A DNA stretch of 64,000 nucleotides from Alphaproteobacteria bacterium (GTDB taxonomy: Bacteria > Pseudomonadota > Alphaproteobacteria > SHVV01). A program made the position numbers and the translations under genes. Numbering within the stretch: position 1 is the stretch's first letter; each line of letters opens with the position of its first letter. The stretch lies in assembly GCA_965261645.1 (NCBI GenBank), contig CBDHDJ010000004.1, forward strand, positions 1,263,362 through 1,327,361, in the 5' to 3' direction. The notes under the pieces are model-generated. The model ran no database searches, was not told the origin of the DNA, and saw only the letters and a program-made list of their open reading frames with translations. Shown here piece after piece: positions 39,653 through 64,000 of this stretch.

Positions 39653-39820
39653 TTGAACCTCCAGGGTTATTGGAGTTGCCGGTCAGGCCGGAGTATCCGC
39701 AATCGGCCGCAATCGATTGACCTAAATCGACTTGATGTTGCGTTCGGTGCAAGAGGCGATGGCCGGCGGTGTGGGCTACGGGAGGCAATAGCCCACACCT
39801 GGAGGGCCAGCGCATGCCGC

Positions 39821-40306: not shown

Positions 40307-40670
40307 GGATATGCTCCTGCGTCGAATGTCTATGACCCAAATATAGGCAGCGTTTGCCGCAAAACTATGTGCATCCGCGCACTTTGTGTTGCGCGAGTTG
40401 GACGATCGGGGAACTGGCAAACTTTGTTACGCTCTTTGCCTGCGTTTGAGCGAGGCTCTCGTTAGCCGTTGGCTACTGAAGCGTCACCGTCGTTCCCGTG
40501 GCCGATGGCCGATGATCACCGGGATATCCGCGAGCCCTTGGCGCGCTACCTGAAGAAGCATGACGAGCTGCGCGTCACCATGGCGGACAGCAGCGCGTTC
40601 GCGCGGCGGATAGATGCAGCGCAACGATGGGTTTCTGCCCGCCGCAGTTTCAATCCCGGAACGGTTCTCC

Positions 40671-41990
40671 TCATTGTGGCGGAATGCCGGATTTAGCGGC
40701 TTCGGCGTGCGGCGTGACCGGTCCAGTGTTCGCCGCCGCCAGGTCCCGCCAGCGGGTGGTGTACCGCGGGGACAGGTGCTCCTGGCGCATCCGCCACTCC
40801 GCAGTGCTGGCCGCGAGACCGAGGCCGATCGAGCCCCGCCCGAACCGCCCGTTGATCCGATCCATCGCCTGCATCAAGCGGCCGTTCTCCAACGGTCTGT
40901 CCTGGAACAGCGATCCAACCGCATCAGCGGCCGGCGACAGGTCAAGGAGCATCACGCCGGCCTTGCGGTAGGCAAAGCCCTCGCGCCAAAGGCGCTCGAG
41001 GATTCGCAACGCCGCCGCGACGATAACGCGGTTGTCGGCGGTTGGCGCCGGGAACGCTGCCGATGCGGCGGTCGTGTATTGTGGGGCGGCGGTATCGAAC
41101 CTGTCGGTCGCGATGGACACCTGCAGATTGCCGCAGACTTGATCGGCCTGACGGATCTTCTCCGCCGTCCTTTCCGCGAAGGATACGATGGCGTCGCGAA
41201 CCTGCTCCCTATCGCTAATGGCCCGGCTGAAGCTTCGCGAACAGCAGGTGGTCTGTTTGGCGGCGGGCTGTGTCTCCAATTCATGACAGGCGATGCCGCG
41301 CAGCTCGTGCACCGTCCTGAGCCCAGTCACTCCCATGCGCTGGCGCACCCAGCCATCGGGCGCATCGCGCAGGTCCAGCGCGGTCCCGATACCGCGCCCG
41401 GCCAGCATCCTCGACCAGCGGCCGCCGATGCCCCAGACATTGCCCGCGGCCGTCCTGGAGAGCGCCGGGCCGACCCAGGCGGGGTTGCCCGACAGGTCAA
41501 GAACCCCTCCCGTCCGTGGCGCGCTTTTCGCGATCCTGTTGGCGATCTTGGCCAGGGTCTTGGTCGGGCCGATCCCGATCGATACCGGGATGCCGGTCCA
41601 GCGGCGGACCCGGGTGCGAAGATTGCGGCACCACCGGGTCAGGTCGGGAACCGCCAGGCGGTCGAGATCGAGGAAGCTCTCGTCGATACTGTAGACCTCG
41701 ATGCGCGGCGCTTCGGCGGCCAGAATGCTCATCACCCGTTCCGACAGGTCGCCATAGAGCGCGTAGTTCGAGGACAGCACCGTGACATCGTGGCGTTCGA
41801 CGAGGCGCTTCGCCTGGAACAGCGGGACGCCCATGGCGATGCCGAGTGCCTTGGCCTCCTGGGAGCGGGCGACGATGCAACCATCGTTGTTGGACAGCAC
41901 GACGATGGGGCGGCCGGCGAGCGAAGGTTGGAACACCCGCTCGCACGAGGCATAGAAGTTGTTGCAATCGACCAGGCCGATCGTCGTCAT
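40671..41990 (-). CDS. umuC: Y-family translesion DNA polymerase V catalytic subunit
   Basis: N-terminal IMS domain [17 protein letters not shown] ... SIDESFLDL. Sits downstream of umuD. Confidence 0.85.
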
Positions 41991-41994
41991 GGAC

Positions 41995-42444
41995 CTAACG
42001 CGCGCAGTGCCGGCGGATGCTGTGGGTAACGACACCCCAGGCCTCGCAACCGGCATCGTCGAGGGCGATATCGGGAAAAGCCGGATTCTCGGCGTAGAGG
42101 ATCAGGGCGCCATTGCTCTTTCTCAGGCGTTTGACCGTCAGTTCGCCATGCAGGACGGCGATGACGATATCGTCGGCCTGGGGCGCGATGGCGCGGTCGA
42201 CAACGAGAAGGTCGCCGTCGAAAATTCCGGCATCGCGCATGGATTCGCCCTGCGCGCGGATGAAAAAGGTCGCGGCCGGGCGGCGGATCAGATGCAGATT
42301 GAGATCAAGCTTGCCCTCGATATGGTCGTCGGCGGGGCTTGGAAAACCGGCGGGTACCCTGGAGCCGTAAAGTGGCAGGGCGAGTTCGGTGGGCTGATCG
42401 GTGAAACGATGCAAGGAGGCGGCCCTCAGTGTTGACACGAACAT
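41995..42444 (-). CDS. umuD: LexA-like S24 peptidase, pol V accessory subunit
   Basis: GFPSPADD ... cleavage-site region and Ser/Lys dyad (GESMRDAG ... TVKRL). The exact start is uncertain: the LexA box overlaps the Met at 42444. Confidence 0.8.
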
Positions 42445-45600: not shown

Positions 45601-47096
45601 CAAGCCACAGCTGTGGCGATGATGTTGTTCCCGTGTTCGCGGTAAAGATCAGCGATGGGTCGCAGCGTCGTGGTCTTGCCCGAGCCTGCCGCTGCCTCGA
45701 TGATGGCGACCCGGCCGCCGGATGAGGTGACCGTCCTTATTGCCGTGATCTGTTCTTCGCTCAACGGATAACCCGCCGCCAGAAGCCCCGCCACCTTTGC
45801 CTCGATGGCCTGGGCGGACAGGGAATGTCCCGTACCTGCGGCCATTCCTGCCGCCATGTCACGGACTTCAAGCTCCATTTGGAGGTTGTGACGTGTTGAA
45901 TAGAGCCTGGTATGCATCATGTCAGCCCGGCCTTCGGCCGACCGTGGCGGCCGGGTCAGGCGCACGACCTCCGGGCTCAGAAGAACACGCTCTATGCTTG
46001 TCGCGACCGCATCGCGGTTCAGGAGTCCGGCGGTGGCATTGCCGACCCGCTCGACGATATCCGGCAGTCGGAAGACTGCTTCCTCGCGTGTAAGGCGGTA
46101 CGGTAGATCTTCCAGAATCGCGGTTAAGTCTCGGATCTGTTGCAGTGTAATATCCTCAACTTTGCCCAATAGCGAGACGATCAGCGCCTCGCGTTCTATA
46201 AAGCCGTCCGCTTCGCCACGCCAGCGCGCGTGCCGGATCTCCGGGTCATTGTCGGGAGATTTGCCGGCCCGTGTGATCTTGTTCGCCGCCGCTGCACGCG
46301 GCGCGTTGCCCTCGACCGCAAAGCCCATCTCCCTGGCGGCGTCGATTATCGCCGCCCGGCGCTTTGACCAGTGTCCCATCAGATCTTCGGGCATGCCTGC
46401 GACCCGCGTGAACTCTCCATCCTTGCCGTACTGTTCCATGCGGATGCCGAGACGCTCTTGCAGACTCCATGCCATGGCATTGCGGTAGACTGCCCCCGCC
46501 GCCTTCATCCAGTTGTAGACCGGGTGTTGATGCAAAGCCCGGTACTTGCCGTCCTGGTGTGTCCGGGCGGCATTGAAGATCACGCAGTGGGTATGAAGCT
46601 GCGGGTCGTTGTCCCGGCTGGTTCCATGCTGGAACATAGCGGCCGTGATATCGGCCGGCAGCACCTCTATATCGCCATCCCGATTACGGATGCGGGTATA
46701 GGCGCAATGGCGCAGCACCGTTTCTTCCAGTGCTATACGCGCGGCATCGTTATGCGCCTGCTCGATCTCCGAACGCAGACCGGGGTCGGCGACCGCCCAC
46801 AAGGCGGAGACGCTTTTGTCGGCGGAGAAGGTCATGTCGAGACCCGCCGAACGGCGCTCGCTGCCGGCATTCTGTGTGAGTTTAGCTCCGGTCTTAGGTG
46901 CGAAGCCGTTGTACAGCCGGTGGAAGTCACTGCTATCGATCTTGCCGCCATCGGCCAGACCGAACAGGCCCTTCGGATTGAACCAGACGCCATCCGGTTC
47001 TTCTCCCGCTGTGTAGTATTCGTTGGGATGACGGAAGGAGCGTTGGCTCTCCAGGTAGTAGGCAGCTGACGCGGCCTGGGCGAGAGTCGCTACCAT
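42675..47096 (-). CDS. traA: conjugative relaxase-helicase, MobF/TrwC-TraI type with extended C-terminal tail
   Basis: N-terminal relaxase His-triad region (HGTSRDNDPQLHTHCVIFN), a central AAA_30/UvrD-like helicase (Walker A IIEAAAGSGKTTTL), and a long charged C-terminal tail with an internal duplication. Confidence 0.85.
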   Translation of the reverse strand: MVATLAQAASAAYYLESQRSFRHPNEYYTAGEEPDGVWFNPKGLFGLADGGKIDSSDFHRLYNGFAPKTGAKLTQNAGSERRSAGLDMTFSADKSVSALWAVADPGLRSEIEQAHNDAARIALEETVLRHCAYTRIRNRDGDIEVLPADITAAMFQHGTSRDNDPQLHTHCVIFNAARTHQDGKYRALHQHPVYNWMKAAGAVYRNAMAWSLQERLGIRMEQYGKDGEFTRVAGMPEDLMGHWSKRRAAIIDAAREMGFAVEGNAPRAAAANKITRAGKSPDNDPEIRHARWRGEADGFIEREALIVSLLGKVEDITLQQIRDLTAILEDLPYRLTREEAVFRLPDIVERVGNATAGLLNRDAVATSIERVLLSPEVVRLTRPPRSAEGRADMMHTRLYSTRHNLQMELEVRDMAAGMAAGTGHSLSAQAIEAKVAGLLAAGYPLSEEQITAIRTVTSSGGRVAIIEAAAGSGKTTTLRPIADLYREHGNNIIATAVAWRTAVALGNDVDARPFCVDKLLRLAARGGIEIDGDTTIIVDEAGMLSTRQAHHILQLSERHGAKIVFAGDTQQQQPVEAGPGLRLVRDAVGSVRVDRIRRQKADLEDILVHVHGENPEAARFRTGMMGGQERTRILTEYDEMVDKAVFTPWQVAASEALRDGNAASAIAAHHARDRFHIGYDEEKTLTGLVDDWDRYQRANPGKSSVVLARTRAEVRALSHLMRERRFAALTDGEQPDTDRVTVIVSRGTEDERTTSPLEIARGDRLRIGATHWEKQLFNGTVITVDDFKVQRGEAGTEPSVLISARTEDGRTVSFHHDEIRDWYGNIRLDHGYALTITSAQGLTVDRTFLLADARPARETIYPAATRHRERLDIYVNRAPLVLDIADRRADNDREVAVTDTEVRAWLAERWSRSQPKEAALDYMADGIWQDSRENVRENNSRSIRETRGEPLEARPVANDNALARIARDVRRTAFGWRHAQAVSTFAAGHQEVLAAYDDLRERTRTQGDTVALGPAYQETLTRHSALLKQAEAFRARPDDFASLLAERGGIGRKDLDAFEELHTRAQRHRRAATMRYVHRIRREAEQAPEQQPGPELRQGELPLEDDHAALDGRAETVERTATTAPSRSPAATTADAGAPATDAETAKPDWLEPYEALRRDWNSVIERVQQTGEPIFYAKGYADMMPRMQALADNRDIAAETRAPMIRALENHQRDFSARNFVVDYLDAAERHMGNYAALQSAAESLDIPTAEVPDHPDWRQEADRLAAAGEAILSDKEAYGVHLDHILIGDTRLKWALSDLREAIRRDSAAIRENAVTETQERSSPAPTPQESARGAQSKAHEFRRLQSAAYHASGDERIAARKAFDDYRERESKHYTTPGEDRRHARDIHEETRQQPSSPQTDEERRREAQSKAHEFRRLQSAAYNATGDERIAAQKAFDDYREREFKKDEKHEEKKRQTRKKSKSLRMRLQ
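42752..43115 (+). repeat. two roughly 125-bp near-identical direct repeats (period 221 bp) inside the 3' end of traA
   Basis: TTGAACTCGCGCTCGCGATAGTCGTCGAACGCC... recurs at 42973. It encodes a duplicated approximately 42-aa AQSKAHEFRRLQSAAY..DDYRERE module. Confidence 0.6.
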
Positions 47097-47497
47097 GGTG
47101 CTCGCTCCGTGGCGGCGCTGTTGGTGAGATATATAACCTGGTCCAGGCGCTGCCCGATTTCGACCGTGATAATTCTCATGGTTCCAGTCCCGGAAATTCC
47201 TACGCTTTACAACAGGTTACGGAAATACCCGGACGATTTTGTACAACATGGCAGGGTTTTATGAACTCATTGAAATCTAAGCACATAAAGGTGCAGAGGT
47301 GTGCGTAGTTTTACATACCCTCTGATGTTTCGCGAGAGGATATAGACTGCATAATCGGAGATCAAGGGGAATTTGGCCCTGCCTTGGTACGTGGCGGCAC
47401 ACTTGAAATGGCCGTTCGAATGGCGGAATTGACCGGCTGTCGGGCCAATGGCAGAATCCGGGCTTGCTCGCGGATTCTGGAAACAGCGGGGAGATGG
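47097..47497 (+). other. candidate oriT / divergent promoter region between traA and a small accessory gene
   Basis: Locally low GC. Direct repeats CGGAAAT(T/A)CC and T(T)ACAACA(G/T)GG are present, along with a GTGCGTA word reminiscent of MobF nic regions. No nic site is proven. Confidence 0.3.
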
Positions 47498-47803
47498 ACG
47501 ATGCCGGCGAAACGCTTCAACGAAGCGGATATCGACTTCGATGCTTTAGACGGCGAGTTGGCGAAATTTGAGCCACCGAAGCTGAGCCTGACGGATGTAC
47601 TGGACTGTTTGCGGAAGCGGCTGGTCAAGCAACAGGCGAAGGGGGTGACGGTGGCTCAAATGCATGAGGTGTTGAAATCGAGCGGCATCGACATCACGGA
47701 ACGCAGTCTGCGGACGGTTCTGGACAAGGGCGTATTGCCGGGACGGAAGGTTGCCGAGGCCGCTAGGTCCATGGTGTCGGAAGAAGGCAGTGATCCGTTC
47801 TGA
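47498..47803 (+). CDS. small hypothetical protein divergent from traA, possibly a relaxosome accessory protein
   Basis: 101-aa ORF starting at MPAKRFNEADIDF with helical, charged character. Its position mirrors accessory-protein genes of MobF systems. Confidence 0.35.
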   Translation, partial: TMPAKRFNEADIDFDALDGELAKFEPPKLSLTDVLDCLRKRLVKQQAKGVTVAQMHEVLKSSGIDITERSLRTVLDKGVLPGRKVAEAARSMVSEEGSDPF

Positions 47804-48145
47804 GCCGAACGACGGCGTATATAGGTTCGCGAAGCAGCGAAGCGGCGTTCGAAGAACGGCGGTCCGTCGTGGCGGTTGTCGGGATGCGGATAATGAAGTT
47901 GCAGTGGGGGATGGTTGGGAGGTGGCGCGGCGCTTCAGCGCCCGCATCCGGCGATGGCGCGAAGCGGCCGATCCGATAGGCGGCGATGCATCGTTCGAAG
48001 AACGAGGAGCCGCCAGCGAGCGTAAGCTCGCACAATTGGCGGTGGCGCGAAGCGCCCCGCCATGGGCCGTGACTTTATGCACACGGCATAAAAAAGGGGC
48101 CGACCTCCGCTGTGTGATGGCGGGGGCCGACCCTGAAGGGTGCCG

Positions 48146-49075
48146 TTATGCGGCGGCGAGAAGGACGGGGATTCCGACCTTGCGTGCCTTGTCGATCATG
48201 TTATTCGTGATGCCGGAGCCGGGGAAGGCGACGAGGCCTTTCGGCAGGAAGTTGAGCAGGACGTCGTTACGCCGGAAGGGCGCGGCTTTGCCGTCCCGGT
48301 CCCAGTTCGGCTTGCAGACGACCTGGTGAACGCCGTTCTTCTCGGCCCAGCTTGCCGCGATTTTCTCCGCACCGGGTCCACCGCCGTGTAGCAGGACCAT
48401 ATCGTCGTACTTGAGCTTGATGCTGTCCAGGGAGTGCCAGATGGCGGTGACGTCGTCAAAGTCCTTGCCGCCGGTGAAGGCGACCAGGGTGCCCTCGGGC
48501 AGATGTGCAGAGGTCTCACGGTCCTTGCGGGCGCGGAGGTAGTCGCGGGCGTCGATGGCGGCGGAAGTTAGTTTGCCGGTCTGGCTGCTGTGCGACCCGT
48601 TGCGCGGACGCCAGGTATCGCCGGTCTCGGTGCGGTATCCCTCTGCGGCGAGGTCGCGCATGGCCTCGAAGGCATCGCGGCGATTACCGAGGTTCTGGAC
48701 CCGATCGGTGAGGCGTTCGAGTTCGCAGGACTTGATCTCGGAGCCGTCCTGCTCGCGCTGGAGGTCTTTCATTTCGGGCGCGATCTTGTCGATGCCGCGG
48801 TCGAGGCGCTGGACCTGGGCGTGCAGTGCATTGACGAAGCCCCAGAGGAGGCTCTCGCGTTCGTCGGAGAGCTGCGTGCCGTCCGGTGCGACCACACCGG
48901 CCAGGATGTGGATCGCTTCCTCGATTCCGGAAAGTGCTTCGTCCTCGTTCCAGATATCCCGGTTGTCGAACTCGTCGGGACCAGGGGTCGCGCCGAACAG
49001 GGCAGCCTGTTCGCAAGCCATTGCGGTCGGAGATGACGTTTCGGTTCTGATGAAGTTCTGCATGAGTCTCTCCAT
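48146..49075 (-). CDS. DUF2493 (SLOG superfamily) domain protein with an unknown N-terminal domain
   Basis: C-terminal roughly 110 aa (LVAFTGGKDFDD ... LLHGGGPGAEK ... VAFPGSGITNNM) look like a DUF2493/SLOG Rossmannoid domain. The N-terminal roughly 200 aa were not recognised. Confidence 0.55.
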   Translation of the reverse strand: MERLMQNFIRTETSSPTAMACEQAALFGATPGPDEFDNRDIWNEDEALSGIEEAIHILAGVVAPDGTQLSDERESLLWGFVNALHAQVQRLDRGIDKIAPEMKDLQREQDGSEIKSCELERLTDRVQNLGNRRDAFEAMRDLAAEGYRTETGDTWRPRNGSHSSQTGKLTSAAIDARDYLRARKDRETSAHLPEGTLVAFTGGKDFDDVTAIWHSLDSIKLKYDDMVLLHGGGPGAEKIAASWAEKNGVHQVVCKPNWDRDGKAAPFRRNDVLLNFLPKGLVAFPGSGITNNMIDKARKVGIPVLLAAA

Positions 49076-52354: not shown

Positions 52355-55300
52355 TTACGCTGGGGTCGCAGCCGCGAGCGGCCAGCGTTCGAGGATGCGG
52401 CCGAGGTCGATGTATTCGGGCACGAACACACGGGTCCGCCACGAGACGATCTCGGTGGCGCACCCCATGCGCTTGAGTGCCGCGAGATCGTTGTCGGCCG
52501 GTCCCTCGATCTCGACGCGGCCAGCGCCCATCAGGCGCCGCCTTGCGAGGCGCCAGCCGTTGGCGAGATCGAAGGACGCACCGCGGATCAGGATCGCCTC
52601 GTGCATCTCGGCCGAACTCATGACCGGTCCGCCGGCCAGTCCGAAGGCGTCGCGAAAGGCGTGCGCCTGCTCGGGCGTCAGAACCCGGCCGAGCAGGCTT
52701 TCCCCGGCATCGGTCGCAAGCCGGCGCACCCGCATGTTCTCGCCCGGCAGGCGGTCCCATATGGGGAGCAGTAGGCCGGTGACCAGCCACAGGCGGGATT
52801 CGGTGTGGCTGGGCAGCCCTTCGATCTCCGCATCCCACAAACTGCGCCAGCGATCTTCGCCTGCATCCTCCCAGTTCGAGGCGGCAAGTTCCTCCGCGGC
52901 CATGGGCTCGCGGGCGGCGGGACGGACCAGGCGGACCCGGGCTTCGACCCCGCCGTCCTCGAACATCCGCGAGGGCGCGGGCAGAACAACGGCTGCACGC
53001 TTCGAGCGGGTGTTGATGACGGGCCGCCCGTCGCGCCAGGCGAGGGCATCGTCCGCCTGGAGCGGCACGAGCCGGTCGCGGCGGACGATCTCGACAAGTT
53101 CGGTGGTGGCGCCCGAGGCTTCATGAACGTGAACCGCCTCGCGCGAGGAGATGCAGAGCGAGTCGGCCCGGATGGTCTCGACACCCTGCTCGTGGGTCCC
53201 GGCCTCGATGGCCTGTTCGATATTGGCCTCGATGCGGGTTTCCAGCTCGGCGAACAGTTCGTTCTGCTCGGCGATGGGCAGGGCCAACAGGCGGTTGAGG
53301 AACCGGGGCATCGGCGGCAGGTCTTCCTTGAGCGAGCCTTCCCAGATCAGCTTCAACCCGGTGGCGTCCTCGAAGCGGTCCATGGACCAGCCCGCAATGT
53401 TGCCGCGCCACAGCGCGATGTAGAACTGGCGCAGCGCCACCTTGGCGTAGGGGCTCTCCAGATTGTCGCTGGCCCGGAACAGGGTGGCGTCGCCGCCGCC
53501 CATGGCGGTCTGCGAATCGCGCTGTCCCCGGGTGATGGCGCCGAGGCTGTCGAGACGCCGGGCGATGGTGGCGATGAAGCAGCGCTCGCCCTTCACATCC
53601 GTGGTGACCGGGCGGAACAGAGGGGCCGAGGCCTGGTGCGTTCGATGGGTGCGGCCCAGGCCCTGGATTGCTTGGTCGGCCCGCCAGCCCGGCTCCAGCA
53701 GGTAATGGATACGCCGCGCAGTGTTGCCGCAGCCGAGATCGGCGTGATAGCTGCGCCCGGTGCCGCCGGCCATGGAGAAGACGAGGATGCGTTTACCGCC
53801 CGCCATGAAGGCGGCGGTCTCGGCGAGGTTGGCCGAGGCCGGGCGGTTGCGTAGCGCCAGGCGCTCGCCGGACGTATCGGCGATACGCAAGATCCGGCGC
53901 GAGCGGCCGGTGACCTCGGCGACGGCCTCGTCGCCGAAGCGGTGGAGGATCTGGTCGAGCGCCGCCTGTACCGGCGGCAACGCCGCGAGCTTCTCGATCA
54001 ACGCGTCTCGCGCAGCGACTGCTTCCTGGCACAAGACCGGGTTGCCCTCGGCGTCGGTCACGGGCCGCGACATGAGATTGCCCTCGTCGTCGGTGAAGGG
54101 TTCCTGCAATTGCACCGGGAAGGCGTGGGCCAGATATTCCAGGCACGCCTCCCTCGGCGTCAGGTCGACGGAGATGTCGTCCCATTCCGAGACGGGGATC
54201 TCGGCGATGCGCCGGTCCAGCAAAGCCTCGCCGGTGGAGACCAGCTGGATGACGCAGGCATGGCCGGCCTCGAGATCGCTCTCCACGGACCGGATCAGCG
54301 AGGGGCATTTCATGGCGGTCAGGAGATGGCCGAAGAAGCGCTGCTTCGCCCCCTCGAAAGCCGACAGCGCGGCGGACTTGGCGTTCTTGTTCAGGGTGGC
54401 ATCGCCTTCCATGATGCCGGTGGCTTTCAGGGCGTCTTCTATATTGCGGTGGATCACCTTGAAGGCCCCGGCATAGGCGTCGTAGATGCGCCGCTGTTCC
54501 GCAGTCAGGGGATGTTCGAGCAGCTCGACCTCGACTCCGTCATAGCTGAGTGCGCGGGCCTGATAGAGCCCGAGGGCCTTCAGATCGCGGGCAACCACCT
54601 CCATCGCCGCGACCCCGCCGGCCTCCATGGCGGTGACGAAATCGGTACGCTGTTCGAAGGGCGTCTCGCCCCCTGAACCCGCGCCGCCCCACAGGCCGAG
54701 GCGCCGCGCATAGGCCAAACCGGGCACCGTGGTGGCCCCGGTGGCGGAGACATACAGGATACGGGCATCGGGCAAGGCGTTCTGCAAACGCAATCCGGCG
54801 CGTCCCTGCTGCGAGGGGGCCGTATCGCCGCGCGATCCCTTGGACCCTGCGGCGTTGGCCATGGCGTGCGCCTCGTCGAACACGATGACGCCGCCAAAGG
54901 CATGGCGGGAGTCTTCATCCATACGATCCGCAAGCCAGCCCACGATCTGTTCGAGGCGCGAGGACTTTTCCTGGCGGGCGGGCGAGCGCAAGGTTGCATA
55001 GGTGGTGAACAGGATTCCGGACTCTTGTGGAATATCGGTCCCCTGGCGGAACTTGCCCAACGGGATGATGTCGGCCTCGCTGCCGCCGATCGCGGCCCAG
55101 TCGCGGCGCGCGTCCTCGAGAAGCTTGTCGGAGGCGGACAGCCACAGCGCCCGGCGGCGGCCGCGCAGCCAGTGGTCGAGGATAATGGCGGCGACCTGGC
55201 GGCCCTTGCCGCAACCGGTGCCGTCGCCCAGCATCCAGCCGCGCCGGAAACGCACTGGCGCGGACAGGGCTTCACCGTCGCCGGCCGCATCCGCGCCGGG

Positions 55301-56971
55301 TTCAAGACCGGCGCTTACGGCTTCTCCCTTATCTGCTTTATTGGCGGTCTCCGGGACGCTATCGCAGTCATCGCTGTTGTCATCGTCATCGTCCGCGACG
55401 CGTGCGACGGTCTCCCAGCCCTCGCCAATGCGGTAGAGCGCGGAAAGATGGCGGCCGTGGGCCTGACCGGCGAGGATGACGCTTTCGAGCTGGGCGTCGG
55501 ACAGTAGTTCGTCCGTCACGATACGCACGGGCAGCATCGGGCGGTAGGCCGGCACGGGATGGGGCACCGCCGCCATGGCGGCGGATTGCACCAGCGGCGT
55601 CGGATGTTCGCAGGCGCCGGGAATGCGCGCGGTCCGGGGACACCACGGCTCGTAGACGCCGGCATGGGTGGTCTCCGGTTCGTCTGCAGTGCCTTGCCCG
55701 TTTGCGGATGGGGTTTCGTAGTCGAGTTCGGCCACCGGCCCCCAATCACGGACTTGCGGGGCTGCGGGTTTGGTGTTGGGCGCGGTGGCCGCTGTGCGCT
55801 TTCGTGGGGCCGGCCGTGCGGCGGCATGGCCGAACACATCGCCGGCCGGAACAAGCGCAGCGGCTATTGGCACGACCGCCTGCCGTTGCGGCACATTGGC
55901 GGCGATGGCTGCAAGCAACCCGGCGGCGGTGGGGACGGATGCCCGTGCGTCGATCGGGACGCCCTGGGCATTGGCGGGATCACGGTCGATTACGGTCAGC
56001 CGGGTATCGAAGGTCGTGCCGCGCCGTGCGTAGGCGCGCCCGTCGATGGCGATGGAAAAGACGGTGCGCGGCGGTGGATCGAGGCGCTCAAAAGCGCGGC
56101 TCCAGGCGGCATCGCCTGGGATGCAGCCGGCCGACGTGATCGCCACCAGCCGCCCGCCCGTCGGAAGCATGGAGAAGGCGGAACGGAGGTGACGCAAATC
56201 CGCATCATGGCGGATGCGCTGGACCCCGGGGCTTGCCGAAAACGGCGGGTTCATCAACACCACTGTGGGATGCAGGCTCGGGAGATAATCGGCGATGGAC
56301 TCCGCGTTGTGACGGGTGACCGGCGCGTGCTCGAACAATCCGGCAAGCAACCCGACGCGGACGGCGGCGATCTCGTTCAGGTGCAGGGGATTCCCCGAAC
56401 GCGTGTCATCGGCGTGCTTGCCGAGAGCGCATTCGGCCATGACGGCGAGCATGCCGGTGCCGGCCGAGGGCTCCAGCACGATGTCGCCGGGCCGGATGGC
56501 AGCGGCTTGCAGCGCGGCGTAGGCGAGCGGCAAGGGGGTGGAGAACTGCTGCGGGGCAAGCTGTTCCTCCGACCGCCTTGTCTGGGACGGCTCCAGCGCC
56601 GCCAGGGTCTCCAGCATGGCGAGCATGGCGGCGGCCGATCCAGGTCCGGCGCCCGCCTCGCGGCGCATGAGACGGCCGTAACGCTGGATGAACAGCACCA
56701 TTGCGGCCTCGGCCGCTTCGTAGGCGTCCTTCCAGACCCAGGCTCCTTGCGTGTCATTGGCGCCGAAGGCCGCGCTCATGGCTTCGCGCAGGGCCTTTGC
56801 ATCGAGCGCGCGGCCCGCCTCCAGGCTGGGAAGCAGAGCGGTTGCGGCGGCCAGCAACGCGGCCGGCTTGGAGAGGACGCCCGGGGTATCGGCAATAGCT
56901 GGGGATGCGGGAAGGGGCTGGACGGCGGGCGGACGCGCGGGCGCGTTCGCCGCCGGTTGGGCGTCGAGCAT
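52355..56971 (-). CDS. N6-adenine methyltransferase fused to SNF2/strawberry-notch-like helicase (1538 aa)
   Basis: Methyltransferase motif I VLEPSAGTGMLAV and motif IV VVLMNPPF. P-loop GDGTGCGKGRQVA with DEAH-like VIVFDEAHAM. C-terminal GRTHRTHQ ... ARRLDSLGAITRG typical of strawberry-notch Helicase_C_4. Confidence 0.8.
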   Translation of the reverse strand: MLDAQPAANAPARPPAVQPLPASPAIADTPGVLSKPAALLAAATALLPSLEAGRALDAKALREAMSAAFGANDTQGAWVWKDAYEAAEAAMVLFIQRYGRLMRREAGAGPGSAAAMLAMLETLAALEPSQTRRSEEQLAPQQFSTPLPLAYAALQAAAIRPGDIVLEPSAGTGMLAVMAECALGKHADDTRSGNPLHLNEIAAVRVGLLAGLFEHAPVTRHNAESIADYLPSLHPTVVLMNPPFSASPGVQRIRHDADLRHLRSAFSMLPTGGRLVAITSAGCIPGDAAWSRAFERLDPPPRTVFSIAIDGRAYARRGTTFDTRLTVIDRDPANAQGVPIDARASVPTAAGLLAAIAANVPQRQAVVPIAAALVPAGDVFGHAAARPAPRKRTAATAPNTKPAAPQVRDWGPVAELDYETPSANGQGTADEPETTHAGVYEPWCPRTARIPGACEHPTPLVQSAAMAAVPHPVPAYRPMLPVRIVTDELLSDAQLESVILAGQAHGRHLSALYRIGEGWETVARVADDDDDNSDDCDSVPETANKADKGEAVSAGLEPGADAAGDGEALSAPVRFRRGWMLGDGTGCGKGRQVAAIILDHWLRGRRRALWLSASDKLLEDARRDWAAIGGSEADIIPLGKFRQGTDIPQESGILFTTYATLRSPARQEKSSRLEQIVGWLADRMDEDSRHAFGGVIVFDEAHAMANAAGSKGSRGDTAPSQQGRAGLRLQNALPDARILYVSATGATTVPGLAYARRLGLWGGAGSGGETPFEQRTDFVTAMEAGGVAAMEVVARDLKALGLYQARALSYDGVEVELLEHPLTAEQRRIYDAYAGAFKVIHRNIEDALKATGIMEGDATLNKNAKSAALSAFEGAKQRFFGHLLTAMKCPSLIRSVESDLEAGHACVIQLVSTGEALLDRRIAEIPVSEWDDISVDLTPREACLEYLAHAFPVQLQEPFTDDEGNLMSRPVTDAEGNPVLCQEAVAARDALIEKLAALPPVQAALDQILHRFGDEAVAEVTGRSRRILRIADTSGERLALRNRPASANLAETAAFMAGGKRILVFSMAGGTGRSYHADLGCGNTARRIHYLLEPGWRADQAIQGLGRTHRTHQASAPLFRPVTTDVKGERCFIATIARRLDSLGAITRGQRDSQTAMGGGDATLFRASDNLESPYAKVALRQFYIALWRGNIAGWSMDRFEDATGLKLIWEGSLKEDLPPMPRFLNRLLALPIAEQNELFAELETRIEANIEQAIEAGTHEQGVETIRADSLCISSREAVHVHEASGATTELVEIVRRDRLVPLQADDALAWRDGRPVINTRSKRAAVVLPAPSRMFEDGGVEARVRLVRPAAREPMAAEELAASNWEDAGEDRWRSLWDAEIEGLPSHTESRLWLVTGLLLPIWDRLPGENMRVRRLATDAGESLLGRVLTPEQAHAFRDAFGLAGGPVMSSAEMHEAILIRGASFDLANGWRLARRRLMGAGRVEIEGPADNDLAALKRMGCATEIVSWRTRVFVPEYIDLGRILERWPLAAATPA

Positions 56972-57217: not shown

Positions 57218-57697
57218 ATGAACCGAACTCTCGTCATCTTCGTTGCATTGTCCGTGTTCTTCTCTATCGGTCCTCTCGCCGATGAAATCCCTTCCGGATT
57301 CGACCCGGGCAGTTCCAAAGCCAAGGGATTGATCCTCACGTTCGAAGACTGGCCGCCGGATAGTGTGGACACGGACCCTCTTCTCCAAAAGCTTCATTCC
57401 GCCGGGCTCAAGGCGGCGCGCAAACTGCCGCGGTTCAGGGTTTGGGTGTTCGAATGGGATGAATGGCAGGAGGGCCGCAGGGCCGAAAACCTGTGTATTG
57501 AACTGCTGCTGGACGATCGAACCTCTTCCCTGTTGGAGAGCTGTGAACCGGATTACTTGCTGCATCCCGCCCGGCCCGCGGCCGGCGGCAACCAGCCGCG
57601 GTGTCATGCCGGTCCGATGTCGATGCGCTCGCCCCAGGGCTCGCGGTTCCTTGTCCCCGGCGGCGACGGCCCCCAGTTGCAAAAAATCACGGGATAG
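57218..57697 (+). CDS. secreted hypothetical protein
   Basis: Clear signal peptide MNRTLVIFVALSVFFSIGPLA. Its 3' end overlaps the convergent vWA gene by about 94 nt, so the C-terminal extent is doubtful. Confidence 0.3.
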   Translation: MNRTLVIFVALSVFFSIGPLADEIPSGFDPGSSKAKGLILTFEDWPPDSVDTDPLLQKLHSAGLKAARKLPRFRVWVFEWDEWQEGRRAENLCIELLLDDRTSSLLESCEPDYLLHPARPAAGGNQPRCHAGPMSMRSPQGSRFLVPGGDGPQLQKITG

Positions 57698-58962
57698 CCG
57701 GGCTTGGTCTCGGGGTAGCTGTCGCATTCCATGTCGGTGAGGTAGAGGCAACAGCTTGGACGCACCCCATGCTCATGGAGCCATGCGAAGCCTGGCCGAA
57801 AATCGGTCCCGCCCCGTCCCTTGATCGTGATGCTGTCCGGTAGTTCCCCGGCGGGATACTGGGCTGCGTCCTGCAGCACCGCGTCGACCTGAAGGACATA
57901 GATGCTGTCCGGTTGCAGTTCGGCGGAGATCTCGCGAATCTCGGCCCAGAACAGGGTCAACGTCTCGCCCGGCAGCGAGCCGGAGGTGTCGATGATGATG
58001 GCGATGGCATCGGTACCCTCCGAATGCCTCGAGGGCAGATAGAGGCCGCTGTCGATGAAACGGCGGTTGGGGACACTCCAGCTATAATCGCGGCGCGCGG
58101 CATCGGTCATGTAGCGGCGCAACAGCGACCGCCAGTAGAGGATGCTCCGATGCGCTTGCCGGATCGTCTCCTCGACTGCGCCCGGCGCGTTGCCTTGCGC
58201 TCGGGCGAGGCTCGCGGCCTGGTGCATGGCCTCGTCCCAGGCCTGCTCCTCGGCGGGTGTGTTCAGAGGCGATTCGTCGGACTGGCCGGTGGCGTCGTCG
58301 CGGCGCTCGTCCGCGTCCATGACTTCGCCGGTGCCGCAAGGGTCGTGGCTGGCGGGCATTTGCCCGGATGGTTTCGAGTCCGCGCTGCCGCTGCCCGGTC
58401 CCGGTTCGTCCTGCTCTTGCGGATTGCGGTCATCGGTTGGATCGGACGGAGCGCTTTGGTCTTCGTCGCCATCACCGCATTGGGGGCCGGCAGCGCTGCC
58501 ACTGTCATCCACATCGCTGGATGAACAGGCATCGCCCGGATCCTCTGAATCGGCGGACGGTTCCGGAAGCCGGTCGTAGGCCTGCTCGGCGCTGATGCCG
58601 TCCCAGGCTTCGGCCTCGGGCGGCAGTGCAAAGCCCGCGTCCCGCAGCAGTCCGTGGCTGACCAGCTGAGAGGCACGTTGCCAGCGCTCGGGGTCGCGGC
58701 CGCGCCGCCGGGTGTGATGCTTCAACGCGCAGGCCAGGACCACGCGCGCGAGCGCGGTCTTGATGTGATCGGCATCCGTGTCCGCCACCCACCCGGGCGC
58801 GTAGCGGATATCCTTGCCGTCGCTGGCCAGGGTCTCACGGGTTGCGTCGGCGCGGATCGGAAGGCGCAATGCCAGGCTGCCGAAGAAGGGCTGGTCGCGC
58901 AACAGCGCGGTCACGCAGTCGCTGACGCGACGGGCGGATTCCGAGTGGGCAGGGGCGGCCAT
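57604..58962 (-). CDS. vWA-like domain protein with N-terminal putative metallopeptidase domain (DUF2201-type)
   Basis: N-terminal DQPFFGSLALRL region, a long acidic low-complexity linker, and a C-terminal vWA-like MIDAS motif (AIIIDTSGS ... TD). Its start overlaps the stop of the upstream gene. Confidence 0.7.
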   Translation of the reverse strand: MAAPAHSESARRVSDCVTALLRDQPFFGSLALRLPIRADATRETLASDGKDIRYAPGWVADTDADHIKTALARVVLACALKHHTRRRGRDPERWQRASQLVSHGLLRDAGFALPPEAEAWDGISAEQAYDRLPEPSADSEDPGDACSSSDVDDSGSAAGPQCGDGDEDQSAPSDPTDDRNPQEQDEPGPGSGSADSKPSGQMPASHDPCGTGEVMDADERRDDATGQSDESPLNTPAEEQAWDEAMHQAASLARAQGNAPGAVEETIRQAHRSILYWRSLLRRYMTDAARRDYSWSVPNRRFIDSGLYLPSRHSEGTDAIAIIIDTSGSLPGETLTLFWAEIREISAELQPDSIYVLQVDAVLQDAAQYPAGELPDSITIKGRGGTDFRPGFAWLHEHGVRPSCCLYLTDMECDSYPETKPGYPVIFCNWGPSPPGTRNREPWGERIDIGPA

Positions 58963-59858
58963 CAGGCTGCCTCCCTGTCCGTGGCGGCGGGCGCGAAGTA
59001 GCCCGCGAATTGCGCCGTGAGCGCATCGGCGTCGCGCTTGACCTGCCGGCGGAGGTTGGGATCGAAGCGCCCCGACGGGCGCAGGGCGTCCGGCTCGATG
59101 CCGGCGAACTTGTCCTTCACCTCCCGGCACAGCATGGCGAGATCGTCGTCGGCGAAGATGTTGAGCCGGGGCACCACATCCACCAGCTCCCTGATGTTCT
59201 CGATCAGGCTGTCCCGGAACACGAACGGTTTGCCGTTCTCGTCCGCGCGCAAGCGTTCGCCGACACGCTCGACCGCCTCGCCGAGGCGCCGGTAGAGATC
59301 GCGCTGCGCATCGTTGAGGCGGGTCCGGACCTGTTGCTCTATATCCCGCTTGACGCGCTCGGTCTCGCCCTGGGCCAGATCGGCCATGAAGTGGCGCGCG
59401 TCGGGGACCGGGACGATGCGGTAGCGAATGGCGAACTTGCCATGAAGCGCCTCCGTGCCGGGATAGTCCTCCAGGCGGAACAGCCGGCCGAGGTCGAGGC
59501 GGGCCTGGTCGACGTAATCGTCGTAGTCCTCGATGAAGCGGGCGCGCTCGCGCACCACGCGCTCGACCAACGAGTCCAGCGCCGCGGTGTAGCGGTCGTA
59601 GTTGGCGACGGTGAGCAGGCGGCCGCCCTGGTCGTCCCACGGCAGAGTGTTGGCATAGTGACTGGTCCTTGCATTGCTCATGGTCGCGGCCAGCGCGGCG
59701 AAGGCCTGCTTGGGCAGGAGGCGTTTGTTGTAGCGCCCGGCGTTGGTGTCGGCATCGTGATGGATGGCGACCTGTTGGCTGGCCTGGCGGTCGTAGAGCC
59801 TGCCGGACCAGGAGTTGATCCGCAGGCTGACGAGCATGGCATCATGGGTGAGATTCAT
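58962..59858 (-). CDS. conserved hypothetical protein between the MoxR and vWA genes
   Basis: 299-aa ORF (MNLTHDAMLVSLRINSWSG...) translationally coupled to the vWA gene. No domain recognised. Confidence 0.5.
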   Translation of the reverse strand: MNLTHDAMLVSLRINSWSGRLYDRQASQQVAIHHDADTNAGRYNKRLLPKQAFAALAATMSNARTSHYANTLPWDDQGGRLLTVANYDRYTAALDSLVERVVRERARFIEDYDDYVDQARLDLGRLFRLEDYPGTEALHGKFAIRYRIVPVPDARHFMADLAQGETERVKRDIEQQVRTRLNDAQRDLYRRLGEAVERVGERLRADENGKPFVFRDSLIENIRELVDVVPRLNIFADDDLAMLCREVKDKFAGIEPDALRPSGRFDPNLRRQVKRDADALTAQFAGYFAPAATDREAA

Positions 59859-59881
59859 GGCGTGGGTCTCCCGGGGTGGTG

Positions 59882-60907
59882 TCAGCGGGTTTTGGTAGCG
59901 GCCCACTGGATAAAGGCCTGGGTATGCTGGAGCGCGGGCTCGCGGCGGATGCAGGAACCGACGAGGAACTCGCCGACCTCGCGCCGGAGGCGCGTGGCAT
60001 AGGTGACGATGGCGCCGAGATTGATGTCGTCGGCCATCCTGTAGAGCGAACCGCAGAGCGCGATCAGCGCACTGGCGTTGCCGGGGACCACGGCGCCCTC
60101 GGGATCGTCGATGACGGTGCGGGGATGGGGCAGTTCGTGCCAGACCTTCAGGAACGCCGAGAACTCGACCGCCGCGGCCTCGCCGACGGTGCCCCGGAAC
60201 AGGGCCCGCTCGGCGACCGGATCGAGGCCACCCCGGCGGTGCACGATGTTCGAGACCATTTCCCAGGTCCTCGGACACGGGAAAGCTTTCTCCGTTGATT
60301 GGGGGTTGAAGGCATGCAGCAACTCGGGCCGCATCGACACGAAGAAAAGCACCTCTGGAGCGATTCCATTCCCCGCGCCCCAGGCGCACCAGTCCGTCGC
60401 ATCGACCCGGATCTCCAGATGGACGAAACGCGAGGCCAGCGGCGTCGGCATCCGGTGGACGACGCCGCGGTCGCCCTCACGGTTGCCGCAGGCGATCAGC
60501 GCGGCGCCCTCGGGGAGTTCATACTCGCCGCATTTGCGGTCGAGCACGAGCTGGTACAGGGCCGCCTGCACCATCGGCAGGGCCGAGGGCAGTTCCTCCA
60601 GATTGATCAACCAGCTTCCGTCCGCATCCGACGGCGGCAGGAAAGCAGGCGGCGCCCAGCGGGTGCGGTCGGCGCTGTCGCGCCACGGGATGCCGCGCAG
60701 ATCGACCGGGTCCAACAGCAGGGCGCGGACATCGACATACTCACGGCCGGCTTGCGCCGCGACCTGTTGGGCGATCTGACTCTTAGCGCACCCTGGAGCT
60801 CCCCAAACCACGCAGGGCTGCCGGGCCTCGACCAGCAGCGCCAGTGTGCTGGCGAGTTCGCTCGGGCGCAGCGAGTAATCGGCGGAGATGGTATCGGGCT
60901 CGGTCAT
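59882..60907 (-). CDS. MoxR-like AAA+ ATPase (AAA_5)
   Basis: Walker A GAPGCAKSQIA, Walker B LINLEEL, sensor and arginine-finger regions. MoxR/RavA-like size of 341 aa. Confidence 0.85.
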   Translation of the reverse strand: MTEPDTISADYSLRPSELASTLALLVEARQPCVVWGAPGCAKSQIAQQVAAQAGREYVDVRALLLDPVDLRGIPWRDSADRTRWAPPAFLPPSDADGSWLINLEELPSALPMVQAALYQLVLDRKCGEYELPEGAALIACGNREGDRGVVHRMPTPLASRFVHLEIRVDATDWCAWGAGNGIAPEVLFFVSMRPELLHAFNPQSTEKAFPCPRTWEMVSNIVHRRGGLDPVAERALFRGTVGEAAAVEFSAFLKVWHELPHPRTVIDDPEGAVVPGNASALIALCGSLYRMADDINLGAIVTYATRLRREVGEFLVGSCIRREPALQHTQAFIQWAATKTR

Positions 60908-61083: not shown

Positions 61084-61584
61084 TCAGGATTGCCGGCGGT
61101 GGAACGCCGTCCTGCCGCTCACGGTTCCCGTCCCCCGCGGCCGGTTCGCCGGCTTTGCCGAACCTGCGGCGTCCGCGGGCTTGCCGGCGAGGATGCGGGC
61201 AGCGGCTTCGAGTTCAGATCCCGATTCGACGATACGACCGGCGGCGCGCGCGGCCTCGGCGTAAATGGACAGGGAATGGTTGGCGGTAAAATGAATATCG
61301 CGCTCGATGCCGAGCCCGAAGGGTCCCCGGTATTCGGTCAATTCGAGCAAACCGATTGACCCCAATTCGGGTGTGCCGAAGCCCAAATCAGCCAGGCCGA
61401 ATCCACATTCGTCAGGGTATTCGGGATCGATCTCCGACAGCAGCAAGGTGCCGGTCCCGCCAGCATTGAACCACTTGACCACGGGCTCGTGGTCGGGCCC
61501 CCTTCGGGTCCCATTTGCAAGCAGCTTGGTGCGCTGTGCTTCGGTGAGCAGTTTCATGGAATGGTCCTCTCGAATATCGGTCAT
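61084..61584 (-). CDS. DUF2958-family protein, common on ICEs and plasmids
   Basis: MKLLTEAQRTKLLANG ... PVVKWFNAGG ... TWLLSEIDPEYPD ... GLADLGFGTPELGSI. Start taken at the second Met. The family name is by recall. Confidence 0.6.
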   Translation of the reverse strand: MTDIREDHSMKLLTEAQRTKLLANGTRRGPDHEPVVKWFNAGGTGTLLLSEIDPEYPDECGFGLADLGFGTPELGSIGLLELTEYRGPFGLGIERDIHFTANHSLSIYAEAARAAGRIVESGSELEAAARILAGKPADAAGSAKPANRPRGTGTVSGRTAFHRRQS

Positions 61585-61688: not shown

Positions 61689-62183
61689 TCAGCCGGCCGG
61701 CGGCGGTCCGGTGTCGCCGGGATCCAGAATGAGCACGCATGCACGGCCGCCGCTGACGGCCACATCCGGAGCGCCATCGGCTCTGCGGGCGACGGTGACG
61801 AGAGGCTTGTTGCCCGGCGGGGCCGGCGGATCGGTGACTTCCGTCGTGACGGTGCCGGCGTGTTCGACGAAACGAATAAGGACGGTGCCGCCCGCGACCT
61901 CAATGCCGCCGGGCGGGCGGAGGCCGGTCAGTGTGACTACTGGCGGCTCGCCGTTCTGGGTGAAACGGTCCGGAACGGGGATCGCGGTGTCGCCCCAGGG
62001 GTCGGCGTCCTCACCCTCGGCAATGGCATCGACAAATGTTGGGCCGCAATCGTCGGAGGGTTTCCAGTGGGGATCGTCGCCGGCTAACTCGATGGCCTTT
62101 TCCAGCGCCGCGTCGAGGGTATCGGCTTCGAGCGTTACAGTGTTGTGGTAGTGGGATGAGTAGCCGCAACAGACGGTATAGTG
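61689..62183 (-). CDS. hypothetical protein
   Basis: 165-aa ORF starting at MTHYTV. The upstream part of the listed ORF is Arg-rich junk. Confidence 0.4.
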   Translation of the reverse strand, partial: HYTVCCGYSSHYHNTVTLEADTLDAALEKAIELAGDDPHWKPSDDCGPTFVDAIAEGEDADPWGDTAIPVPDRFTQNGEPPVVTLTGLRPPGGIEVAGGTVLIRFVEHAGTVTTEVTDPPAPPGNKPLVTVARRADGAPDVAVSGGRACVLILDPGDTGPPPAG

Positions 62184-62185
62184 AG

Positions 62186-63355
62186 TCATTGCGCCGTCTC
62201 CCGGTCGCCGGCATCGGTTGTGGGTTCCGTGCAAACGGGTCCGATATCGACGCTGACCTTGCCGCCGCACACCACGATGGTGACCGTGCGGCCGCGCGGC
62301 ATGAGCCAGAAGATTTCCCGCCATACCGCATCCGCGATGGTGCGCTGGCGGGCTTCCTCGACCGAGCACAACAGCTTGAGCGACATATGCAGGGCGTCTT
62401 CCTCGAAGCGGGTGAGTTGTGTTTCCCAAGAGTCCGCATCCGCGTCGTCGCTGGGGCTGAAGAACGCGGCGCGCAGCAATCGGGCGAGTTCCTCGGGCGC
62501 GATGCCGCTGTCCGCCGTCACCAGGGGCAGCGCGTCATGGATCGATGACCAGGCCTCGCCCGCGAAGGCGAGATCGGCGGGAACGGCGATGGTGTCGCAT
62601 TTGTGGAAGCAATGGCGCGGTGATTTAGGCGGATGCAGAACATTCAGGTGCATCACGATGTCCTCGGGCCGTTCCGGCTCTTCGCCGTTCTCCCGGTTGG
62701 TGAAGTAATCCAGAGAACGAACGGCGCCATCCACGGTCACAAGGGTCTCGATGCCGGTGACGCGCGCGAGCGTGTCGTACCAGGGATAACCCTCGAAACG
62801 TGGCTCGGGGGCGAACAGCCGGAGCGTGCGTTCCGATCCGTCCTGGAGCCCGGCAAGGCCGAGGGCGCGATGAAGCGCCCGGGCCTCGGGCGGCTCGGGG
62901 TCGGCCTGCATCACCAGCGCGCCGATGCCTACGCCTGCGAAAACGGACCGCTCGTCCCAATAGTCCGTGTCGGCGATGGCGGGACGCCAGGGACGCAGTT
63001 CGGCGGGCGGCTCGGGCATCTCGATCCCCGCCTCTTTCGCCTGGTGCCAGTCGGTCCAGGCAACGCGCGGAGCCGGATCGGCCTGCGCCATGGCGCGGTA
63101 GACGGCAAGCCGCGCGGCCTCGCGCATCTCTTCCAGAAACGAGGTCTCTACCGCTTCCTTTCTCGCGGGCAGGACCAGCTCCAGATCGGGGCAGGAGTCG
63201 ATGTCGGCGCGCGCCGACCAGACGCCGCCTTCCACGGCGTCGATCTGTGGCAGGCGCACCGGCAGGGTCAGGCCATGAAAGTTGACGTCGGGGACGCGGT
63301 AGCCCGCATGGCTGTCCTTAAAAACGCCGAAGACGAGGCCCTTCCATGGTTCCAC
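62186..63355 (-). CDS. hypothetical protein, partner of the GHKL-ATPase ORF
   Basis: 389-aa ORF with a GTG start. It overlaps the 3' end of the GHKL ORF by 88 nt in another frame. This may be a separate gene or the continuation of a frameshifted single gene. Confidence 0.45.
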   Translation of the reverse strand: MEPWKGLVFGVFKDSHAGYRVPDVNFHGLTLPVRLPQIDAVEGGVWSARADIDSCPDLELVLPARKEAVETSFLEEMREAARLAVYRAMAQADPAPRVAWTDWHQAKEAGIEMPEPPAELRPWRPAIADTDYWDERSVFAGVGIGALVMQADPEPPEARALHRALGLAGLQDGSERTLRLFAPEPRFEGYPWYDTLARVTGIETLVTVDGAVRSLDYFTNRENGEEPERPEDIVMHLNVLHPPKSPRHCFHKCDTIAVPADLAFAGEAWSSIHDALPLVTADSGIAPEELARLLRAAFFSPSDDADADSWETQLTRFEEDALHMSLKLLCSVEEARQRTIADAVWREIFWLMPRGRTVTIVVCGGKVSVDIGPVCTEPTTDAGDRETAQ

Positions 63356-63975
63356 ATGGAGCGCGCCGTCGAGAAAGGCGCGCCGCTCGACAACCTCGCC
63401 GTCGATGGTACCGGCAGGGGATAGTGGCGAGCAGCGGTCTGCAGGAAAGCGCGCACCGCGTGGGGCGCTTCGGACGCGTCGAAGGTAACCGAGGTTCCAT
63501 GGGGCCAGGGGGCGCTGTCGTCCGGGACGACATGGGCCCCATCGCGGCCAAGAAAGTGAGCGGGCTCCAGAACCAGGCGGTAGCCGGGGCTTGGATCCCC
63601 GCCGGGGACGCGCCAGCGCAACGTGCAGCGCCGGCGCGAGAGGGCGAGAAGCCCGAACCCGGCGGGATCTTCCGCCTCGGCGATGCCGTCCTTCCAGACG
63701 CTCTCGCCGAAGGTCAGCAGGACGGCGGGATCGGCGATTCCCACGCCGTCGTCGGTGATAGTGACGCGGGTGGTATCTCCGTCCTGCTCGATGGTCGCGG
63801 CAACGCGGTTGGCGCCGCCACGGCGTGAGTTTTGCAGCGTCTCGGTGAAAATATCGGCAAGGCCAGCCGAAAACAGCCGTGTCACCTTGTCGATGGCGCT
63901 GTCGCCGACCCGGGCGTGGATCGTGGCGGAACTATTGCCGGCCTCGGCCGTAACGGCATTCTGTGCGGTAGACAT
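63268..63975 (-). CDS. GHKL-type (histidine kinase/HSP90/MORC-like) ATPase domain protein
   Basis: N-box ETLQNSRRGGA, G1 box DDGVGI and G2 box AGFGLL. An AGGAGA RBS lies 6 nt upstream of the ATG at 63975. The C-terminal 100 aa are of uncertain authenticity. Confidence 0.55.
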   Translation of the reverse strand: MSTAQNAVTAEAGNSSATIHARVGDSAIDKVTRLFSAGLADIFTETLQNSRRGGANRVAATIEQDGDTTRVTITDDGVGIADPAVLLTFGESVWKDGIAEAEDPAGFGLLALSRRRCTLRWRVPGGDPSPGYRLVLEPAHFLGRDGAHVVPDDSAPWPHGTSVTFDASEAPHAVRAFLQTAARHYPLPVPSTARLSSGAPFSTARSMWNHGRASSSAFLRTAMRATASPTSTFMA

Positions 63976-64000
63976 GCAGGTTCTCCTGGTTGTCGATGCG

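Follow-up and report, generated by a model that had tools for sequence, protein, structure and literature searches.

Positions 62186-63975, read on the reverse strand, of a 64,000-nucleotide stretch of the alphaproteobacterial contig CBDHDJ010000004.1 (the whole stretch is called the window below) almost certainly hold a single gene, which encodes an ATPase of 596 residues from the GHL class of the GHKL superfamily, and not two genes. We conclude so because homologues read as single open reading frames (ORFs) straight through the position at which the window copy loses its frame, and nothing was found that contradicts this conclusion. The gene is located on an integrative conjugative element (ICE), and the window copy is a broken or mis-sequenced member of a widespread, uncharacterised family of GHKL ATPases carried by ICEs and plasmids.

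The interrupted gene and its intact relatives

The ORF listing gives two frames at this place, both on the reverse strand. ORF A (235 residues, 63268-63975) starts with ATG, and ORF B (389 residues, 62186-63355) starts with GTG at 63355 and lacks a Shine-Dalgarno sequence; the two overlap by 88 nt, just as the first-pass annotation had described. In the three-frame translation ORF A reads …AARHYPLPV and then runs into low-complexity nonsense, and the frame of ORF B remains open a long way ahead of its GTG start, reading …TIDGEVVERRAFLDGALHVEPWKG…. No homology was detected in the ORF A frame beyond residue 189, where frame 0 carries the homologous TIDGEVVERRAFLDG…. Joined at the junction, the two ORFs yield a 596-residue protein whose start, MSTAQNAV…, is common to the window copy and its relatives. 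The 407 codons after the shift have no ribosome-binding site of their own. The parts of the gene, all on the reverse strand, are the following:

62186-63975, complete interrupted gene of 1,790 nt (1,791 minus 1) for the 596-residue GHKL/GHL-class ATPase; frame lost after codon 188
63983-63987, Shine-Dalgarno sequence AGGAG, 7 nt upstream of the ATG at 63975, read from the sequence
63410-63975, N-terminal in-frame part with the Bergerat-fold ATP-binding domain; codons 1-188 and 2 nt of codon 189
63409-63410, site of the 1-nt deletion; CCGGT directly followed by ACCATC in the window, CCGGT(C/G)ACCATC in relatives, so that the third base of codon V189 is absent
63268-63408, out-of-frame tail of ORF A; 46 residues of nonsense, PSTARLSSGAPF…, with the stop at 63268-63270
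62186-63409, C-terminal part; codons 190-596 and the stop, with the predicted transducer/middle domain and two further domains; includes ORF B

With the joined protein as query, 1,442 matches were obtained. P0004, a protein of 596 residues (cluster of 522 sequences), and P0006 are 90-91% identical to the joined query over 100% of its length, and the 596-residue relatives are continuous across the junction, reading …RHYPLPVTIDGEVVERRAFLDG… and …RHYPLPVTIDGEVVERRAFLDGALHVEPWKGLVFGVF… without interruption. An exhaustive profile search (E<1e-30) gave 814 cluster representatives at the 50% identity level, nearly all of them 550-600 residues long and matched end to end in one piece. An intact ORF of 596-598 residues was present in 12 of 12 close loci (L002-L013, from alphaproteobacterial metagenome-assembled genomes, MAGs), and all loci examined at about 50-56% identity held single ORFs of about 555-590 residues.

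The nucleotide comparison places the lesion precisely. Alignment by blastn to five loci (L001, L002, L006, L007 and L009) shows a single 1-nt gap between 63410 and 63409. The gene has no other uncompensated indel, and over 6.4 kb of the operon no other frame-breaking indel is shared against all four genomic references. The extra base (the 21-nt form) was found in every fetched locus that matches the junction pattern. The loss of the base turns GGTNACC (GGTCACC or GGTGACC in relatives) into a perfect palindrome, GGTACC, at 63407-63412, which is probably a coincidence.

A frameshifted single protein was one of the options offered by the first-pass annotation, and it is the one borne out: homologues are single ORFs of 560-600 residues across the junction and the fold is continuous there. 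Comparison of homologues, which had been named as the means of choosing between one gene and two, decides for one. Homologues consisting of an uninterrupted ORF of an unrelated family had been given as grounds for refutation; uninterrupted ORFs were indeed found, and the family is GHKL, not an unrelated one.

Domain architecture and fold of the ATPase

The Bergerat-fold motifs reported earlier for ORF A (ETLQNSRRGGA, DDGVGI and AGFGLL) are all present, and profile matches show that the assignment to GHKL was right. Motifs I-IV occur in the window copy in the canonical order of the superfamily. The conserved elements are listed here, all on the reverse strand, with conservation taken from a family alignment of 126 sequences with a mean column identity of 27%:

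63829-63843, motif I or N-box, E45-T-L-Q48-N49, followed by R51 and R52; E45, Q48 and N49 conserved in 99%, R51 and R52 in 100% of the 126 sequences
63739-63753, motif II or G1 box, D75-D-G77-V-G79; D75 99%, G77 100%, G79 98%
63652-63663, motif III or G2 box, A105-G106-F-G108; A105 98%, G106 99%, G108 100%
63493-63498, motif IV, G160-T161; G160 97%, T161 95%; aligned to the GT of MutL by hhalign
63155-63169, conserved loop P270-A-R272-K273-E274 (LPARKE) in the predicted transducer domain; P270 99%, R272 99% (alignment A2), K273 at least 90% (alignment A1)

Taken alone, ORF A scores 25 bits against Pfam HATPase_c over residues 38-111 (cut-off 26.4), with weaker matches to HATPase_c_3 and HATPase_c_2, and ORF B has no Pfam match. 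Among 59 family members scanned against Pfam, HATPase_c was found in 52 (best E=4e-8) and HATPase_c_3 in 42, with no match in the C-terminal ~400 residues. The family profile detected E. coli MutL in the PDB at E=2e-7 (MutL residues 27-126) and MORC2 at 7e-5, with HtpG reaching only E=0.03-0.2. Alignment by hhalign to the MutL N-terminus, with a MutL sequence of which residues 27-126 were verified, covered motifs I-IV (family residues 39-164) with a probability of 97.3% and E=2e-11.

An AlphaFold model of P0004 built on 126 diverse sequences is continuous (predicted local distance difference test, pLDDT, 91.3; predicted template modelling score, pTM, 0.87), with a pLDDT of ~98 over residues 180-230, which span the shift point; an earlier run on 59 sequences (pLDDT 61.6) was not used. 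Foldseek matched the model in the PDB to fragments of TRAP1/Hsp90 comprising the N and M domains (E=2e-10, 460-500 aligned columns), to the LN40 fragment of MutL (E=1e-9, TMt 0.54-0.57, ~340 columns) and also to MORC2. The first ~340 residues correspond to the ATPase and middle/transducer modules of these proteins; the Bergerat alpha/beta sandwich is present, and within one chain the ATP-binding domain leads directly into a transducer/middle domain, as in the GHL class. The model suggests an ATP-binding domain at ~36-190, a transducer/middle domain at ~190-340 and then two domains without a recognised family. The frameshift falls at the seam between the ATP-binding and the transducer domain, and ORF B represents the transducer/middle and C-terminal domains of the same ATPase.

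In MutL, GyrB and Hsp90 a basic residue of the transducer contacts the gamma-phosphate of ATP. By analogy with K307 of MutL and R380 of Hsp90, R272 or K273 in the conserved LPARKE loop is a candidate for this contact.

The family belongs neither to MutL or Hsp90 in the strict sense nor to the defence-type MORC proteins. Unlike MutL (LN40) and MLH1-PMS, the ATPase lacks the C-terminal dimerisation/endonuclease domain (no MutL_C in the 59 Pfam-scanned members), its C-terminal 250 residues are unrelated, and it is encoded on conjugative elements and not in a mismatch-repair context; NCBIfam MutL models give it 15-18 bits against cut-offs of 180-750, and no Pfam MutL model exceeds its threshold. 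Identity to Hsp90 proteins (TRAP1, GRP94, HtpG) is 9-13%, and no Pfam HSP90 match occurs in the 59 members; the TM score of only ~0.4 with a high root-mean-square deviation indicates that the domain arrangement differs, and there is no evidence of chaperone function. In contrast to MORC and paraMORC proteins, the ATPase is not linked to restriction-modification or defence genes and has neither the coiled-coil insert nor the CW domain. The top structure matches in a viral library (E ~1e-10) were phage rIIA proteins, protectors against Rex exclusion, which are likewise GHKL proteins encoded on mobile elements; however, this likeness is at the fold level only (TM ~0.33), no PHROG rIIA match was obtained, and rIIA is longer and membrane-associated. 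No dedicated Pfam or NCBIfam model exists for the family, and searches of NCBIfam, PADLOC and PHROGs returned no significant family for either the ATPase or the small protein encoded directly downstream of it.

Origin of the missing base and other readings of the locus

The window copy shows no decay other than the missing base. Of 50 columns with a conservation of at least 90% in the family it retains 49, and the single exception is also found in intact P0004. It carries nine private substitutions, compared with 5-43 in intact close relatives. The pairwise ratio of nonsynonymous to synonymous substitution rates (dN/dS) against eleven intact loci, calculated in the single-ORF frame, is 0.16-0.28 before as well as after the shift, a sign of purifying selection, and the start codon, the Shine-Dalgarno sequence and the downstream coupled gene are all intact. 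Since no other decay is seen, the deletion must be either very young or not real, and the sequence by itself would fit both to a nearly equal degree.

We see about an even chance that the base was lost in assembly or sequencing and that the organism carries an intact gene of 596 residues. Besides the absence of decay, this is favoured by the provenance of the relatives, mostly metagenomes assembled from long reads, where the operon often shows frame breaks of a single base. Locus L001 has two different indels at 4.6x coverage, the small ORF downstream is truncated in about 8 of 30 loci, and many versions of aberrant length occur among database proteins. Homopolymers are the usual place of long-read indels, but the site, between GGT and ACC, is not one. 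Moreover, comparison with four references over 6.4 kb of the operon shows no other indel that breaks the frame, and seven housekeeping genes of the window are unbroken as judged by domain continuity, so the assembly is not generally error-ridden.

A chance somewhat short of even goes to a real and recent deletion, in which case the gene would have become a pseudogene only lately, in a copy of the element that is decaying or redundant. Three different insertion sequence (IS) transposases on the island and the character of the site, which is not error-prone sequence, are in keeping with it. In related genomes the module is present in up to 6-7 copies, and many of these are truncated or disrupted, so that loss of a single copy is common and cheap. 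Yet there are no further lesions and no signal of relaxed selection, and the allele was absent from every other record searched, which leaves it without independent confirmation: a search of the JGI metagenome collection with either junction allele found the extra base in all of its three matches, at least one of which probably lies in an unrelated gene, and the deletion in none. Near-identical DNA to the region was not found by megablast among PLSDB plasmids.

Aberrant versions of the ATPase in the databases (P0001, P0003, P0035, P0053 and P0061) include an internal duplication (702 residues) and fusions to ParB or DUF2958 (up to 931 residues). Indels or mis-assembly in metagenome contigs most likely gave rise to them, and the high-GC operon appears to be error-prone in public assemblies. 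The module of ParB, ATPase, small ORF and DUF2958 is multicopy in alphaproteobacterial MAGs, with copies ~90% identical to each other (6-7 places on contig CBDCMV010000003.1, three on OZ253470.1), and many of the copies are truncated or frameshifted, with the ATPase affected in L014-L016 and L037-L041.

The other option of the first-pass annotation, by which a small GHKL ATPase and a 389-residue partner would be encoded by separate genes and form a restriction-like or anti-phage conflict module, is very improbable. GHKL and MORC ATPases are generally known to occur with partners in defence systems (Iyer et al. 2008, as cited in PMC5512222), and the best viral fold matches are rIIA-type GHKL proteins. 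Nevertheless, no homologue has the split as its normal state, the start of ORF B lies midway in the GHL transducer region and lacks a ribosome-binding site, and the likeness to rIIA does not extend beyond the fold. PADLOC found no defence family (nothing for P0004; for P0067 only E=0.01 to a type II restriction endonuclease model), and the neighbours are conjugation and DNA-processing genes. The two-gene module is thus refuted by the architecture of the homologues.

Programmed -1 ribosomal frameshifting or transcriptional slippage yielding forms of 235 and 596 residues, also raised earlier, can be dismissed as effectively refuted: passage from ORF A to ORF B formally requires a -1 shift and frame B is open throughout the overlap, but the extra base is present, and the junction in frame, in all relatives that match the site, frame breaks elsewhere sit at other places (as in the L001 long-read contig with its two indels), no shift position is conserved, the sequence CCC CTG CCG GTA CCA contains neither an X XXY YYZ slippery heptamer nor a homopolymer, and the shift point lies inside a confidently folded region.

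The conjugative element and the proposed role of the ATPase

The single ATPase gene belongs to a conserved order of genes for a ParB-like protein, the ATPase, an ATGA-coupled 166-residue protein, a DUF2958 protein and a Strawberry-notch helicase. The position of ParB is taken from the relatives; the sequence upstream of 64000 lies outside the window, and exact-sequence look-ups of P0004 and of four window ORFs (235, 389, 341 and 166 residues) in the contig collection gave no match by which it could be extended. In the relatives a ParB_N protein of ~790-870 residues ends ~90 nt upstream of the ATPase, and in nearly every locus with at least 50% identity tblastn located ParB on the upstream side and the Strawberry-notch helicase at a distance of 1-5 kb downstream. 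The real conserved partner of the ATPase is not ORF B but the 166-residue ORF, which is translationally coupled to it. The ATGA overlap and the protein are kept down to 46% identity in more than 20 loci, about two thirds of the loci, and the protein has ~30 invariant residues. No Pfam, PDB or PHROG match was obtained for it, the PDB sequence search giving only chance-level matches.

This order is embedded in an island that begins at a tRNA gene. The first 27.7 kb of the window contain housekeeping genes (LptA, LptC, a SIS-CBS protein, QueG, PheS and PheT) with continuous domains. The island that follows is identified as an ICE because it adjoins the tRNA gene and encodes both an integrase and a relaxase together with proteins of DNA processing. 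Within the window no genes for type IV secretion were seen. The main features of the island are:

27748-27838, tRNA-Ser(GGA), start of the island
28015, transposase, IS240-type DDE
29202-30383, Rieske ring-hydroxylating oxygenase
30669-31886, tyrosine integrase
34981, transposase, IS110 family
38345, transposase, DDE_Tnp_1
42675-47096, TrwC relaxase
52355-56971, reverse strand, Strawberry-notch-type helicase (Pfam AAA_34 and Helicase_C_4)
61084-61584, reverse strand, DUF2958 gene (Pfam PF11171, E=6e-33), in the same position in relatives
61689-62189, reverse strand, 166-residue ORF; start ATG overlapping the stop of the ATPase gene as ATGA, Shine-Dalgarno sequence GGGAGA of its own

Proteins with LysM and M23 peptidase domains and a UmuC-like polymerase are also encoded between the tRNA and the relaxase (27748-42056), and the island further holds a YspA/SLOG protein, a DUF7146-Toprim protein and SSB. 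A gene-free gap of ~1 kb between the TrwC relaxase and the YspA/SLOG gene (47097-48145) is a candidate region for the origin of transfer (oriT); a search for an oriT-like inverted repeat in 47050-48200 gave only a 10-nt palindrome (47236-47249). The ATPase block is oriented toward this gap beside the relaxase, and its position is compatible with a leading-region-like location, the oriT itself not having been located. In leading regions anti-defence and establishment genes cluster (PMC11541004).

A three-gene cassette at 57604-60907 (reverse strand) encodes a P-loop protein with a weak AAA_5 match, a 298-residue ORF without a family and a DUF2201_N/DUF2201 metallopeptidase-VWA protein. It lies downstream of DUF2958 in the window and upstream of ParB in L018, L026-L031 and L042; because its position differs in this way, the cassette behaves as a movable unit. 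For the 298-residue ORF (58962-59858) a DUF3150-like assignment was rejected, as no Pfam match was found. In the housekeeping part of the window, an ORF for an NAD-dependent epimerase (14345-15340, forward strand) matches only the C-terminal half of Pfam Epimerase (positions 111-240), and its N-terminal half may be divergent or the gene damaged.

Homologues with 34% identity are carried on plasmids of cultured sphingomonads, Roseomonas, Agrobacterium and others, 23 of 82 being typed as conjugative, and are annotated as "ATP-binding protein" or "hypothetical protein". Those of Sphingobium xenophagum pSH2 and the Rhizorhabdus wittichii RW1 plasmid (WP_011950458.1) belong to the same family, with this identity extending over 94-96% of the length, and are intact single ORFs of ~550 residues on MOBF conjugative plasmids, among small establishment-type genes (DUF736); on pSH2 the homologue adjoins a PRTRC (ParB/ThiF) cassette as well as DUF736 genes. 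Unlike in the window, the 166-residue partner was not seen there.

Like other GHL ATPases, the intact protein would bind ATP, dimerise through its N-terminal domain and pass through an ATP-driven cycle as a clamp or remodeller. It would act on the DNA of the element itself, or on a nucleoprotein complex of the element, while this is being established or maintained after transfer, and the ParB-like protein and the coupled 166-residue protein would be its partners in action. Such a substrate is proposed because the gene holds a fixed place behind the gene for the large ParB-like protein and has genes for SSB, Toprim, a UmuC-like protein and a helicase around it, next to the TrwC relaxase. We regard such a clamp or remodeller as a tentative possibility, drawn by analogy with other GHL proteins. 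Several points weigh against it. In the 34%-identical sphingomonad plasmid homologues the adjacency to ParB is lost, with two hypothetical genes lying upstream instead. The R272/K273 loop was not aligned to the HPAKHEV loop with K307 of MutL or to R380 of Hsp90, as neither hmmsearch (E<=10) nor hhalign reached the transducer. The C-terminal ~250 residues match no known family, and a literature search found no paper on the family and no studied member.

A more speculative idea, which we consider rather unlikely as it stands, is that the block of ParB-like protein, GHL ATPase, 166-residue protein, DUF2958 and Strawberry-notch helicase may constitute an uncharacterised system of alpha- and betaproteobacterial conjugative elements, in which a GHL clamp and a ParB-type DNA clamp would establish, protect or silence the incoming element. 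If true, this would be a role of GHKL proteins not described for conjugation, possibly an anti-defence one in a leading-region-like position, and the window copy would be a natural knock-out. Nothing here shows a new mechanism. The product of the window copy as written would be the 188-residue ATP-binding domain with a nonsense tail of 46 residues, and if the deletion is real, the window gene is inactive.

The apparent pair of an ATPase and its partner of unrecognised family is an annotation artefact of one missing base, and a false lead is thereby removed. The region should be annotated as one disrupted coding sequence, or corrected if the reads show an error. More interesting than the broken copy is the family itself, with at least 814 clusters at 50% identity, a fold like that of Hsp90 and MutL and a near-fixed place behind ParB. 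The ATPase and its 166-residue partner are obvious candidates for studying how these elements become established.

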